Positions 1,337-8,503 of a stretch of 32,000 nucleotides of DNA are shown here, in pieces (the first letter of the stretch is position 1; every line of letters begins with the position of its first letter). This stretch comes from Staphylothermus marinus F1. Its GTDB lineage: Archaea; Thermoproteota; Thermoprotei_A; Sulfolobales; Desulfurococcaceae. Location of the stretch: contig NC_009033.1 of NCBI RefSeq assembly GCF_000015945.1, positions 330,001 through 362,000 on the forward strand. Reading direction: 5' to 3'. Made by a program: the position numbers and the translations under genes. The notes below the pieces were generated by a model. The model was not told the DNA's origin and searched no databases. It saw nothing but the letters and a program-made list of their open reading frames with translations.

Positions 1337-2311
1337 TTAGGTTGTTTTTATGCTTGGTTTGTGTAGTATTTGGTTTGTTTTTAGTAGGTATTTTGTGTTT
1401 GTGTTTGTTTCTTCTAGGAGTAGGTGTCCTGCGTAGTAGTCTTGTATTATTAGTTGTTTTCCTATTATTTGTTTTAGGTTTGTTTCTTTTGCTTTATGGT
1501 ATTCTGTTATTTCTGTGTTTGGTTCTATTCGGAATATTGTTGGTTGTTTTGTTTGTTTTATTCCTAGGATTCGCTGTGTTTTTGTAAGTGTTTTTTCTAG
1601 TTTTAACAGTACTGGTGGTATTGGTGTTTTTATTGTTTCTTTTAGTTTTCTATGTGGTTTTTCTGTTAGTCTTTCTAGTTTTCCGGCTTTGATCTCTATG
1701 TTTCTTGTTTCTACTGCGCTGTTAGATGTGTATAGTGTTGTTGCTACTATGTGTGGTTGTTCAGCTATTCTATCTAGTAGTCTCCATGTTCTTGTTGTTC
1801 CTACTTTGAATTTGTCTTTGTTGTAGGCTAGTAGGTAGACTGTATAGTTTATTTTATCTTTGTATTTCTCATCTAGTATCCAGCAGTTTCTCAAGCTTTC
1901 TAGTCCCGCTGTTGAGAAGCATTTGGAATATATTGCTCTAATACTATTCCTATGCTTCGAGCAGTATCCAAGCTCTGAAACCGCTTCTCTAACACAGTAT
2001 TCCCTCTCTAAAGGATTATCTTTCCTCTCCAATGGACCATTATGCCAGCGACAATACTCTACATAGTTCTCCACAAACATAATTTTCTCGCCGGGAACAA
2101 TTAAGTGTAGTATATGCGAACCCTCCTCCTGAGCAATTAAACCATAAAATACAAGCTTATACCTAACAAGCTCCCTACCCATCTCCAAACCCATAAACAT
2201 ATCCAACCCAGAAACTCTAACATACTCCTTAGAATAAAACCTCGTATCAAAATAGAAAAGCCTAGGTATCAAAACATATCCCTCCCCCCATAAATCCATA
2301 AATTTCCTCAC
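1337..2311 (-). CDS. Uncharacterised 324-aa protein located between two CRISPR arrays
   Basis: Only long ORF in the 1.2-kb interval between leader 1 and the distal end of array 2; GTG start. It has YC-x-x-H motifs (YCRWH, YCSKH) and a segment, YTVYLLAYNKDKFKVGTTRTWRLLDRIAEQ, that resembles GIY-YIG/T5orf172-like cores (weak, from memory). The C-terminal third is K/T/N/Q/P-rich low complexity caused by nucleotide skew. Confidence 0.6.
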   Translation of the reverse strand: MRKFMDLWGEGYVLIPRLFYFDTRFYSKEYVRVSGLDMFMGLEMGRELVRYKLVFYGLIAQEEGSHILHLIVPGEKIMFVENYVEYCRWHNGPLERKDNPLEREYCVREAVSELGYCSKHRNSIRAIYSKCFSTAGLESLRNCWILDEKYKDKINYTVYLLAYNKDKFKVGTTRTWRLLDRIAEQPHIVATTLYTSNSAVETRNIEIKAGKLERLTEKPHRKLKETIKTPIPPVLLKLEKTLTKTQRILGIKQTKQPTIFRIEPNTEITEYHKAKETNLKQIIGKQLIIQDYYAGHLLLEETNTNTKYLLKTNQILHKPSIKTT

Positions 2312-2545
2312 CTATATTAAGGAATAATAATTATACATTAAATATTTCAGAAAACACATCGCTTCACGAAGCTAATAATTCCATTAGAATCCGGGACACT
2401 ATTTTCCAATACAAAGAAACCATTGATCCTTTTCTTAATAGTTCCATATAATTGACCAGCCATTTACAGGATAAATATTTACCTTTCATATTCATTATTC
2501 GAATACCAACAAACTAGAAGAATATGATACGTATAAGAACTATCG

Positions 2546-3483
2546 CTTTCAATTCTTTCTATGTTGTTACCTATCACTTCTATTTTGATCTATGGGAGGA
2601 GAACCCGTTACTTTCAATTCTTTCTATGTTGTTACGAGAAAATACTGCGTGAACTCTCTAAGCATGATTGTCGAGCTTTCAATTCTTTCTATGTTGTTAC
2701 ATTGACTCCTAATTTGTTTCTGCAAAAACGTGATATGCTCTTTCAATTCTTTCTATGTTGTTACTTAGAGTTACCTAGGGAACAGGTTTACGACTTAGTA
2801 ACTCAATCTTTCAATTCTTTCTATGTTGTTACATACACCGATCGAAGTTATTGAAGAATACGAGAGGGAAATATCTTTCAATTCTTTCTATGTTGTTACA
2901 AATACACTTGTCCAATATGCGGTAAAGAGTTTAAGAGTGCTTTCAATTCTTTCTATGTTGTTACATGGATTGTAATAAAATACAGAGCCGATTGGAGCTG
3001 GAACTTTCAATTCTTTCTATGTTGTTACTAGGGGGCAAGATCAAGGTTAGCCTCAAGGCTATGGCTACCTTTCAATTCTTTCTATGTTGTTACTGTTGTG
3101 TTGTGGGTTGTTGTTGTGTTTTTTTGTGTGTCTCTTTCAATTCTTTCTATGTTGTTACTTAGAGTTACCTAGGGAACAGGTTTACGACTTAGTAACTCAA
3201 TCTTTCAATTCTTTCTATGTTGTTACCATTTGAAGTATTTCGGCTAGACGTTTCCAGCCCATGTATCTTTCAATTCTTTCTATGTTGTTACTAATATAAA
3301 TAAGAGTGAGGATAAGAAGCAAGAAAAAATACTTTCAATTCTTTCTATGTTGTTACACCATCTGGTGAACGGGCCATTGGTGCTGTATGGTATAGCTTTC
3401 AATTCTTTCTATGTTGTTACCAAGCCATTCAAGCCATTGAACTATTTTTTTATGCATACTTTCAATTCTTTCTATGTTGTTAC
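2546..3483 (-). CRISPR. CRISPR array 2: 15 repeats, 14 spacers
   Basis: Repeat CTTTCAATTCTTTCTATGTTGTTAC starts at 2546, 2611, 2676, 2740, 2808, 2875, 2940, 3004, 3069, 3134, 3202, 3267, 3332, 3396 and 3459. The leader follows at 3484. One 43-bp spacer occurs twice (2765-2807 and 3159-3201). Confidence 0.97.
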
Positions 3484-3642
3484 TTTGGTTCGAATATGTT
3501 GTTACATTTATCTTTTTTGTTCGAACCACTATATATTTCTTTCTATATTTAATTCCTAGATTGATCGTGTTCGACCAGTTTTCTATAGACTTAATAGTAT
3601 CTTTGAGGTATTGACGGGTTTGTATAATGAAAAACATTCGAC
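3484..3642 (-). promoter_or_regulatory. CRISPR leader of array 2
   Basis: Conserved leader copy. Its repeat-proximal end carries GTAACAACATA (RNA sense), an 11-nt copy of the repeat 5' end, directly before the first repeat. Confidence 0.85.
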
Positions 3643-3711
3643 TAGTTTCCATTAGTTTTATGGGTAAAGTTTCTATATTTTTCTATACTATTTTTTATTT
3701 GGTGGCTGGTT

Positions 3712-6501: not shown

Positions 6502-6508
6502 AAATGTG

Positions 6509-6666
6509 GTCGAATGTTTTTCATTATACAAACCCATCAATACCTCAAAGATACTATTAAGTCTATAGAAAACCAGTCGAACACGATCAATTAGGGATCA
6601 AATATAGAAAAACATATATAACAATTCGAACAGATTAAATAAATGTAACAACGTATTCGAACCAAA
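6509..6666 (+). promoter_or_regulatory. CRISPR leader of array 3
   Basis: Reverse complement of leaders 1 and 2 with scattered substitutions. TCGAAC motifs at 6577, 6626 and 6657, GTCGAAT at 6509, TATA-like CATATATAAC near 6625-6635, and the half-repeat GTAACAACGTA at 6645-6655. Confidence 0.85.
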
Positions 6667-7597
6667 GTAGCAACATAGAAAGAATTGAAAGCCTCATAAA
6701 AACAATGTCTTAAAAAACAATTATATTTAAGTAGCAACATAGAAAGAATTGAAAGCTCAGCAATCAGCTTATTATCTCTATAAACCCTGATATTGGTAGC
6801 AACATAGAAAGAATTGAAAGTTCTTTTCTTGAGGGCTTCTCTAAGGGTTTCGGCTACTATGTAGCAACATAGAAAGAATTGAAAGTAGGCGAGGACGACA
6901 TGGTTAGGTGGAGAGCGAGAACCCGTTGTAGCAACATAGAAAGAATTGAAAGTCCCCCGCCACACCACGCACACAAAACATGCATGCAAAAGTAGCAACA
7001 TAGAAAGAATTGAAAGTTGTAGAATAGCCTGGGCTACTGCCTCTACCTTCTCTTTAGTAGCAACATAGAAAGAATTGAAAGTTTATCCCCACAAACCTTA
7101 GCAGTATATCGTATAACTGGTAGCAACATAGAAAGAATTGAAAGCGGACTCGGTTTTGCCAGCGATATCGGGGTAGCGGATGTGTAGCAACATAGAAAGA
7201 ATTGAAAGGTCCATAAATTTGTGGAGCATACTCTACTAGCATTTCATGTAGCAACATAGAAAGAATTGAAAGAAGATTAATGGAATTGCAACGCTTATTA
7301 ATGCTATTATTAGGTAGCAACATAGAAAGAATTGAAAGCTGCCGTATCAAGCTTCGGCACAATTTTTGTCCTAAATATGTAGCAACATAGAAAGAATTGA
7401 AAGTTAGAGACCTATGCGTCCTAATAGAGGTATTGCTCTCCTAGGTAGCAACATAGAAAGAATTGAAAGATAGGAACCGCTCTGTGGCATGCGTTTATAG
7501 AAATTGGTAGCAACATAGAAAGAATTGAAAGAGAGATACAGCGAGATAGATTATACGCCGACAATTGACCAAGTAGCAACATAGAAAGAATTGAAAG
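6667..7597 (+). CRISPR. CRISPR array 3: 15 repeats, 14 spacers
   Basis: Repeat GTAGCAACATAGAAAGAATTGAAAG starts at 6667, 6731, 6796, 6861, 6928, 6992, 7057, 7120, 7184, 7248, 7314, 7379, 7445, 7507 and 7573. All 15 copies carry G at position 4; the other arrays carry A. Confidence 0.97.
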
Positions 7598-7612
7598 ATT
7601 ATTTGGGGTTCC

Positions 7613-8503
7613 TTATGTTTGTTGGGTTTTTATTTCTATATGTCCTAGTCCTATTGCTCTGCTTGATCCTGCTCCCATTATTTGTGCGTGGCTTAGTATG
7701 TTTTCTATTAGTAGTTTTTCTTTTTTGCTAGTGTTTTCTTTGTTTATCCAGTATTTTACGTATCCTGTTAGTGCTGGTATTGTTTTTTGTTCGTATAGTA
7801 CTTCTACTTGCTTAACCGTTTTCCAATATGTTTTGCTTTCTATGAGTACATAGTTTATTATGTCTAGTATTCTCCAGTATTCCGGTCCTCTTTTATACAT
7901 CTTGGTTATTTCTCCAGCATTATAGCTGAAAAGTATTCCAGGTAATATGTTTAGTCTCTTATACTTTGATTTTCTATATGGATCTATTGGTTGTACAGGT
8001 GTTCTAAACATCACTTTTACTGAATCAGTATTGTCTAGTTTTATTGGGGGGTTATTGTTTGGCAACTTATATGTTTTAACATCTAGGTCTGTGAGTATCC
8101 ATTCAGTGTTGAAAAATTTTATACTATTAATTCCTAGAACAGCTTCAAGAATCATTCCAGAAACCTCTTCACTACATGATACTGTGAAGAAATATTTTTT
8201 GTCAGGCTTAACAGTAGTGATTCCATTATTGACACCAGCTCTCTTCCATAAATAAACCACGCCGTTTCTACTATAGTATCCTATAGGTGTAACATGTATA
8301 GGTTTAGGCTGATCAGGAATGCTTTCCTCAAAAATCTTTTCAAGCAAAGGATTACTTTTAATAAGCAAAGACTTTACAACTTTACCAGTGAACGGTGGGA
8401 GAACAGCTGGATTAGTAACAGTTATCCCAACATGTACAACATAGTATCTCCTACTAGGAGCAGAAAATAAGACATGCTCAATATCAAGACCTATATCAAT
8501 CAA
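7613..8503 (-). CDS. cas6: Cas6 crRNA-processing endoribonuclease
   Basis: 296 aa. C-terminal glycine-rich loop GAGSSRAIGLGHIEIK is typical of Cas6 RAMPs. Convergent with array 3: the stop is 15 bp from the last repeat. A paralog lies at 17514-18413. Confidence 0.85.
   Translation of the reverse strand: MIDIGLDIEHVLFSAPSRRYYVVHVGITVTNPAVLPPFTGKVVKSLLIKSNPLLEKIFEESIPDQPKPIHVTPIGYYSRNGVVYLWKRAGVNNGITTVKPDKKYFFTVSCSEEVSGMILEAVLGINSIKFFNTEWILTDLDVKTYKLPNNNPPIKLDNTDSVKVMFRTPVQPIDPYRKSKYKRLNILPGILFSYNAGEITKMYKRGPEYWRILDIINYVLIESKTYWKTVKQVEVLYEQKTIPALTGYVKYWINKENTSKKEKLLIENILSHAQIMGAGSSRAIGLGHIEIKTQQT

Follow-up and report, generated by a model that had tools for sequence, protein, structure and literature searches.

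A strand-biased mutational footprint directed outward from CRISPR arrays in Staphylothermus marinus

In the 1.57 Mb genome of Staphylothermus marinus F1, which has a Sulfolobales-like type I-A CRISPR system, the strand that runs 5'->3' away from a CRISPR array is rich in G+T, and this outward bias is a lineage-specific, ongoing mutational footprint. The bias is of the keto type, one strand being enriched in G+T and its complement in A+C, and the array sets its polarity. The genome has 12 arrays of a single repeat family, with a leader at 12/12. The rule was proposed in an earlier note on three arrays of a 32,000-nt stretch of this genome (the window); it holds at all 12 arrays except for a pair with facing leaders (394573/395456), where the outward strands cancel, and it is independent of array orientation and of coding strand, as had been claimed.

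Within the window, array 1 (542..1175, minus strand, 10 repeats) has repeats that read CTTTCAATTC... on the plus strand, which makes the crRNA sense minus. Its leader (leader 1, 1164..1340, minus strand) is homologous to all other leaders, and in the leader-side skew zone (1176..1800) the outward plus strand reaches up to 88% G+T (recomputed as 0.883 at 1341-1400 and 0.80 at 1461-1520). This zone overlaps the C-terminal part of an ORF of unknown function between arrays 1 and 2 (1337..2311, minus strand), which is conserved in the sister genome and has no match in Pfam or NCBIfam; its GT3 is +0.73 at the 5' end (G+T) and -0.97 at the 3' end (A+C). On the distal side of array 2 (2536..3500, minus strand, 15 repeats, crRNA sense minus), minus is the outward strand and is G+T-rich (1950..2535), and plus-strand G+T is 0.20 at 2161-2220. 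Beyond leader 2 (3485..3660, minus strand, homologous to the other leaders), the leader-side zone (3500..4100, plus strand) takes in the N-terminus of cas1 (3712..4737, plus strand, TIGR00287), with G+T of 0.717 at 3721-3780 and 59 of the first 60 cas1 codons ending in G or T. Array 3 (6650..7600, 15 repeats) lies on the plus strand and has plus crRNA sense; its leader 3 (6481..6670, homologous to the other leaders) is on the plus strand too. The leader-side zone of array 3 (6100..6500) is G+T-rich on the outward minus strand; the plus strand has 23% G+T (0.233 in both halves of 6301-6420), and the A/C-ending C-terminal codons of cas4 (5938..6501, plus strand, TIGR00372) lie within it, 73 of the last 83 being of this type. 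The distal-side zone (7600..8000, plus strand) has G+T of 0.80 and 0.717 in the two halves of 7681-7800 and takes in the C-terminus of cas6 (7613..8503, minus strand, TIGR01877), in which 58 of the last 62 codons end in A or C on the coding strand; for the cas6 paralog (17514-18413), the count is 13 of the last 22.

These recounts bear out the hand counts of the earlier note, as well as its observation that array 1 gives no signal on its left (distal) flank (outward keto 0.02); for the mid-operon control (12001-12060), the hand-counted G+T of 53% became 0.567. A fourth array (20823..21180, plus strand, 6 repeats, crRNA sense plus) has a gene on either side: its leader 4 (20665..20842, plus strand, homologous to the other leaders) adjoins the 5' end of a DeoC-family aldolase gene (19874..20767, minus strand), where GT3 is 0.60, and its other side adjoins the 3' end of a phosphoglycerate mutase gene (21338..22621, minus strand), where GT3 is -0.68. 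A phage database search with the window gave no host-naming spacer match.

Across the genome, the outward G+T zone measures about 300-700 bp around each array, or 0.3-1 kb in the wider estimate, at leader and distal ends alike, and the distal-side skew equals the leader-side skew in strength. In 200-bp windows, keto skew has a genome-wide SD of 0.11, and 18-19 of the 63 non-overlapping peaks with |skew| of at least 0.40 (~30%) lie no more than about 300 bp from one of the 12 arrays, these taking up about 1% of the genome; at random positions the outward skew is about 0.00. Directional GT3 of at least 0.6 was detected for 14/20 gene ends near arrays versus 26/2678 elsewhere (Fisher p=7e-23, OR 238), and for 6/20 versus 35/2656 in the sister genome (p=3e-7). 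The skew affects both synonymous and non-synonymous sites and is strongest at the synonymous ones. Most skew peaks away from arrays are explained by low-complexity Thr/Pro/Asn segments; an amino-acid-driven skew of this kind was rejected for the arrays, near which most of the signal resides at third positions.

It should be noted that at the junctions the array rule coincides with a gene rule (coding strand G+T-rich at 5' ends, A+C-rich at 3' ends), which is separable from the array effect only by its weak genome-wide size, with skews of 0.02-0.08 in gene pairs. We rejected a gene-intrinsic skew operating in any context, which, measured genome-wide, falls short of the array effect about 10-fold; moreover, orthologous gene ends shift their skew with the presence of an array and not with gene identity. 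Biased gene conversion was rejected as well, because it would be non-strand-specific (e.g., GC-biased), whereas the observed bias is strand-specific. Larger arrays have stronger skew (Spearman 0.68, p=3e-5). No footprint was found at units consisting of a leader and a single repeat; therefore, the leader promoter alone is insufficient. The spacers themselves are not skewed, and thus array-internal composition cannot account for the skew of the flanks.

We compared 1,299 orthologs between this genome and the sister genome (G001), the only other genome of the genus in the comparison set. The direction of change was judged from the array-free ortholog, which is near the genome baseline, because more distant relatives would be saturated at third positions. 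When an array lies beside a gene end in one genome only, the skew sits in the copy of that genome. Third-position differences in the predicted versus the opposite direction numbered 223:53 at array-near ends, whereas the opposite ends of these genes gave 126:108 and randomly chosen genes 1465:1492; first and second positions of the near ends were also biased (97:22 and 54:15). The earlier note had predicted that C->T and A->G would be in excess on the outward strand, and such an excess was found in the array-bearing lineage. Per-site excesses were 0.49 vs 0.23 for C->T, 0.38 vs 0.145 for A->G, 0.13 vs 0.034 for A->T and 0.13 vs 0.075 for G->T, and substitutions in the reverse direction were depleted. 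The process is thus lineage-specific and still under way, since it is the array-bearing copy that is skewed, mostly by outward C->T and A->G. Total third-position divergence is modestly raised (0.285 vs 0.235) and amino-acid identity is lower beside the array (0.84 at the near end vs 0.88-0.90); much of the signal is a redirected spectrum rather than extra divergence.

These comparisons bear on two explanations that involve no local mutational process. If the flanks had been skewed beforehand, or were recently imported DNA, the skew would be inherited or foreign; some arrays do have tRNA genes, which are integration sites, nearby, and some skewed loci are common to both genomes. However, the flanking genes, housekeeping and cas alike, are orthologs with 84-90% amino-acid identity, the skew of orthologs follows the present location of the array, and unrelated genes are skewed at the array-adjoining end only. 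Such an origin is already contradicted by the ortholog data, and we consider it hardly conceivable. Selection on composition (for DNA structure, Cbp1/Cren7-type chromatin binding or avoidance of PAM-like motifs) could be reflected in the depleted reverse-direction substitutions, which purifying selection could produce. Nevertheless, the effect peaks at synonymous sites, reaches 0.5-1 kb into unrelated genes and arises quickly after the gain of an array, PAM avoidance would lack strand asymmetry, and we know of no function that requires outward G+T; we consider selection a highly improbable source of the skew.

The pattern is also present in related genomes, namely in the sister genome and in G037, which belongs to another family. 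In the three genomes it borders every array of some size, for several hundred bases. The sister genome has no Cas1, Cas2, Cas4, Csa1, Cas3, Cas5, Cas7, Cas8 or Cas10, its cas remnant being one Cas6 paralog; its arrays, which are small and decaying, carry the footprint, also at array positions that are absent from S. marinus F1. Thus, the footprint is independent of Cas proteins. The suggestion in the earlier note that Cas3 unwinding exposes the strand fails on the missing Cas3, and the adaptation machinery was rejected as a cause, given the footprint without Cas1, Cas2 and Cas4. Error-prone repair of spacer-integration gaps made by Cas1-Cas2 (or Cas4/Csa1) would operate at arrays, with single-stranded intermediates and gap filling; however, the genome that lacks these adaptation proteins shows lineage-specific changes at its own arrays, integration acts only at the leader end (the leader-repeat junction), yet distal sides are equally skewed, and the gaps are about 25 nt, whereas the footprint covers hundreds of bases. 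Spacer integration as the cause is largely refuted by a footprint that persists where cas genes are gone and that also occupies the distal side, and we consider it very improbable. Candidate sites of lost arrays ("fossil" skews) are already visible.

A footprint that needs no Cas proteins and grows with the number of spacers points to processes within the array body. We see two leading candidates: transcription leaving the array, which would expose the outward strands, and synthesis during repair at the array. We give about an even chance to the reading that every array with at least one spacer is a source of strand-asymmetric mutation, most likely through outward transcription in both directions, with a reach of about 0.3-1 kb on either side. 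Cryptic promoters within spacers or repeats would send antisense transcripts out through the leader, and the sense pre-crRNA would read through beyond the distal end. With such untranslated transcripts, the outward strand, as the non-template one, would stay single-stranded, perhaps in R-loops, and be open to heat-driven deamination of cytosine and adenine and to depurination. The outward strand gains mainly C->T and A->G, plus A->T, and the changes build up at synonymous and amino-acid sites of any adjoining gene, cas or housekeeping. The observed spectrum fits an exposed outward strand that undergoes deamination and, with A-rule bypass, depurination, and cryptic promoters of both sense and antisense direction are known from Sulfolobales arrays (PMC10883916). 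On the other hand, the flanks of the rRNA operon, the most transcribed locus (located with Rfam), show no comparable skew, and generic transcription was rejected as a sufficient cause on this ground. Tail-to-tail 3' ends show no inward G+T, which plain sense transcription-associated mutagenesis (TAM) would predict; with the weak skews of gene pairs, this means that transcription alone would have to be unusually mutagenic at arrays, for example through R-loops of untranslated RNA. In addition, per-site A->G about equals C->T, whereas cytosine deamination alone is expected to give a clear dominance of C->T, and error-prone resynthesis of the outward strand would yield the same two main changes.

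Such resynthesis would follow if breaks or gaps at arrays were resected 5'->3' and then filled in, which makes the outward strand the new one and gives the observed polarity. Arrays recombine often (spacer deletions, shrinkage), and an error-prone fill-in polymerase, in organisms without MutS/MutL, would favour G·T/T·G mispairs, so that the new outward strand receives G and T; misinsertion of G opposite T and of T opposite G yields A->G and C->T. The dependence on array size, the independence from Cas proteins and the small, decaying arrays of the sister genome, which imply recombination there, are consistent with such repair. However, resection exposes the inward strand, on which damage is expected to act in the opposite direction, and the raised A->T and G->T are more typical of abasic-site bypass than of polymerase misinsertion; we regard recombination and repair as an unlikely source, although a real contender. 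Local initiation of replication at arrays, origin-like or R-loop-dependent, would also give the right polarity, with leading strands leaving the array both ways and gaining their usual G+T excess. Against this, replication skews span replichores and the footprint spans about 0.3-1 kb, and we know of no origin machinery at arrays; we consider replication initiation quite improbable.

More broadly, and with somewhat less than even confidence, we suggest that arrays drive local, strand-directed evolution independently of cas genes, their outward strands being repeatedly single-stranded or newly synthesised up to about 1 kb. R-loops of untranslated transcripts heading outward could be the agent, as could local recombination-dependent replication; in the extreme form, arrays would be sites of local replication initiation. 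A literature search found no description of skewed CRISPR flanks, and we know of no role of arrays as strand-biased mutation hotspots. The footprint marks CRISPR arrays, in S. marinus F1 and two relatives, as a new kind of mutational hotspot, which would reshape the codons of neighbouring genes, including cas1, cas4 and cas6, bias their proteins and shape their evolution. The footprint would also confound analyses of codon usage, horizontal transfer and selection near arrays, and lost arrays would leave datable footprints from which array history could be traced. The candidate array-body processes (antisense transcription from cryptic promoters, R-loops, recombination) are thought relevant to array stability and crRNA output, and to our knowledge were never tied to mutagenesis.

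Among known systems, the mitochondrial H-strand gradient arises from deamination of displaced strands, and there, as at arrays, the strand that is longer single-stranded gains C->T and A->G. In the array case the outward strand would be the exposed one, its exposure being proposed by us; R-loop mutagenesis is exemplified by the R-loops of dCas9 (PMC6411842). Cbp1-Cren7 holds down spurious transcription that arises at internal promoters, in both orientations, in Sulfolobales arrays (PMC10883916); that work shares the array system and concerns transcription only, with no mutational footprint. Another known case is TAM of tRNA genes and the DNA beside them (Thornlow et al. 2018, in the summary of bioRxiv 10.1101/2025.03.26.645593): as far as this summary goes, a strongly expressed non-coding RNA locus has raised, strand-biased mutation (non-template C->T) that reaches the flanks. 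The array footprint differs from the summarised tRNA case in being outward on both sides, including upstream of the leader promoter, and in being found at CRISPR arrays of hyperthermophilic archaea; in the S. marinus F1 genome the rRNA operon shows nothing similar. The upstream part requires antisense transcription or a non-transcriptional process. TAM should scale with transcription and affect other highly transcribed loci too, but here the rRNA flanks are unskewed and gene pairs are weakly skewed; the outward strand has the C->T and A->G excess and would be the non-template strand. In replication-associated keto/GC skew, the leading strand is G+T-rich and the sign switches at origins and termini. 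The array footprint shares with it a keto-type asymmetry with polarity that switches at a point; however, it is of kilobase rather than replichore scale, switches at every array and scales with array size.

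The window holds a type I-A CRISPR-Cas locus of the Sulfolobales type, with cas1 (window 3712-4737), csa1 (4746-5678), cas2 (5685-5951) and cas4 (5938-6501) on the plus strand, cas6 (7613-8503) and csa3 (8532-9206) on the minus strand, and cas7 (9747-10742), cas5 (10763-11641) and cas3 (12879-14642) on the plus strand; assignments are from NCBIfam, except for cas3 (Pfam). A cas6 paralog (Cas6_N plus CRISPR_Cas6; 17514-18413, minus) lies without an adjoining array. The four arrays of the window belong to one repeat family, and the Staphylothermus marinus F1 genome (G000), in which the window spans C1:330001-362000, has 12 arrays in total; leaders were found by homology at all of them. 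The crRNA sense is on the minus strand in arrays 1 (542-1175) and 2 (2536-3500), whose leaders are at right, and on the plus strand in arrays 3 (6650-7600) and 4 (20823-21180), whose leaders are at left. In a loose repeat search, the sixth spacer from the leader of array 2 had a sense-strand keto (G+T) skew of -0.95, i.e., nearly all A/C, and may be an irregular spacer or an overlooked repeat. Outside the window, array 394573 has a tRNA-Arg gene (G000:C1:394378-394453) at a distance of ~120 bp, and array 564439 has tRNA-Leu and tRNA-Arg genes (558427/563835) nearby; tRNA genes are typical integration hotspots.

We scanned the complete G000 genome for keto skew in 200-bp windows (SD 0.11). Within ~300 bp of arrays, which make up ~1% of the genome, lay 18-19 of the 63 extreme peaks. 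The G+T fractions and codon counts of the earlier note were reproduced on recount, and oriented profiles bore out its rule: the outward strand, whose 5'->3' direction leads away from the array, is rich in G+T whichever way the array points and whichever strand encodes the affected genes (cas1, cas4, cas6, an unknown ORF at window 1337-2311, DeoC aldolase and phosphoglycerate mutase). This holds at all arrays except at cancelled or flat flanks, and these departures are explained or weak: the leaders of arrays 394573 and 395456 face each other and their outward strands cancel, while array 1 (as had been claimed) and array 1564219 have a flat distal flank. The G+T-rich stretch extends for ~500-700 bp on the leader side (mean outward skew 0.30-0.42 over the first 400 bp) and for ~300-500 bp on the distal side. 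The skew is greatest at third codon positions (0.6-0.9), with positions 1 and 2 skewed too, and gene ends with a directional third-position skew (GT3) of at least 0.6 are ~240-fold enriched beside arrays (Fisher p=7e-23). The C-terminal codons of the cas6 paralog are far less A/C-biased than those of cas6. Spacers, when examined, had no keto skew; thus, the skew belongs to the flanking DNA and not to the array contents. The unknown ORF (minus strand, between arrays 1 and 2) is conserved in the sister genome G001 (459728-460672) and had no match in Pfam or NCBIfam. Its C-terminal part, with a low-complexity K/T/N-rich translation and a coding strand of ~88% A+C, is shaped by the skew, and a portion of the ORF may be non-coding.

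G001, from the same genus (complete, 1.58 Mb, single contig), carries many small arrays (2-6 repeats) plus leader+single-repeat units, and shares 1,299 reciprocal best hits with G000. Where an array adjoins a gene end in one genome only, that copy is skewed and the ortholog much less so: GT3 is 0.87 versus 0.33 in G001 for the 5' end of G000 1564732, and 0.90 versus 0.20 for 1554628; for arrays in G001 only, G000 1434119 has -0.03 versus -0.47 in G001, and G000 63200 has +0.23 versus -0.23. We counted third-position differences within 60 codons of the gene end, as read on the outward strand. At array-near ends the array-side copy had more G+T in 223 cases and less in 53; the split was 126:108 at the far ends of the same genes and 1465:1492 in random array-free genes. 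Codon positions 1 and 2 at array-near ends share the bias (97:22 and 54:15), and amino-acid identity is 0.84 there versus 0.88-0.90. When changes were read relative to the array-free copy, the outward strand had higher per-site rates of C->T (0.49 vs 0.23) and A->G (0.38 vs 0.145), the excess that had been predicted. A->T (0.13 vs 0.034) was likewise more frequent, as was G->T (0.13 vs 0.075), and the reverse changes were depleted. The ortholog comparison contradicts an origin of the flank skew in imported foreign DNA. The skew is a genuine, ongoing, array-linked and strand-asymmetric mutational footprint, present genome-wide.

The footprint outlasts the array, since some G000 array flanks (e.g., 393443 and 396159) are skewed also in G001, where array and leader were lost. 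Gene ends far from arrays with array-like skew (GT3 0.87-0.97; G000 693907-694566, 1146649-1147278, 708767-709630 and 782123-783340, outside the window) likewise have skewed G001 orthologs; such shared loci may be fossils of lost arrays, or may have another source. Most keto-skew peaks away from arrays (e.g., 157839, 162712, 1292529 and 1552521) are not of the array type but are driven by amino-acid content (ACN codons) in Thr/Pro/Asn-rich low-complexity coding segments of presumed surface proteins.

By junction geometry, the outward rule predicts the same as a gene rule (coding strand G+T-rich 5' and A+C-rich 3'), which is weak across G000 (0.02-0.08), ~10-fold below the values near arrays. 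This weak tendency extends to tail-to-tail pairs, and A+C at gene 3' ends is the reverse of the plain sense-strand expectation from transcription-associated mutagenesis (TAM). The rRNA operon is the most strongly transcribed locus; its flanks in G000 were unskewed when profiled, and gene-pair configurations had weak effects, so ordinary transcription is insufficient.

The pattern recurs in related genomes. Besides G001, it was found in G037, a relative that belongs to a different Sulfolobales family, carries a variant of the repeat and has Cas1 and Cas10. Its arrays of 50-70 repeats have a leader-side outward skew of 0.2-0.9 over ~800-1000 bp, and the footprint is seen in two Sulfolobales genera. 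Larger arrays have stronger skew (Spearman 0.68, p=3e-5). The leader+single-repeat units of G001 had no flank skew, which indicates that the leader promoter by itself is insufficient and that the array body is required. No Cas1, Cas2, Cas4, Csa1, Cas3, Cas5, Cas7, Cas8 or Cas10 was found in G001; its type I-A cas locus is lost entirely, and a Cas6 paralog adjoining arrays 432643/433048 is the sole remnant. The footprint is nevertheless present there, and the distal side is equally affected; both spacer integration (Cas1/Cas2/Cas4) and Cas3 are therefore rejected as causes. The earlier interpretation is partly supported: the pattern and its mutational nature stand, strand exposure is a candidate cause, and Cas3 unwinding as its source does not stand.

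The footprint appears to require a process that starts in the array body and, on either side, sets the outward strand apart; we infer that outward transcription and repair synthesis fit best. Cryptic antisense promoters inside Sulfolobales arrays are documented (PMC10883916). Antisense transcripts from them would run out via the leader, and sense pre-crRNA would read through beyond the distal end. Being untranslated, these transcripts might give rise to R-loops in which the non-template strand, here the outward one, is single-stranded. Once exposed at 75-80 °C, this strand would be subject to cytosine and adenine deamination and to depurination with A-rule bypass, in agreement with the raised rates of C->T, A->G, A->T and G->T. 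We favour outward transcription with an exposed outward strand, at roughly even confidence, because transversions too are in excess and antisense promoters are documented. Repair synthesis, in which recombination-driven array breaks or gaps would be resected and filled in, is a rather unlikely alternative; the two main changes would arise if the outward strand were resynthesised with errors and mismatch repair were lacking. Local replication initiation at arrays and selection on composition near them are minor alternatives to outward transcription.

A literature search found no description of skewed CRISPR flanks. The nearest known phenomenon is the footprint that TAM leaves at tRNA genes and in the DNA flanking them (Thornlow et al. 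2018, cited in bioRxiv 10.1101/2025.03.26.645593).
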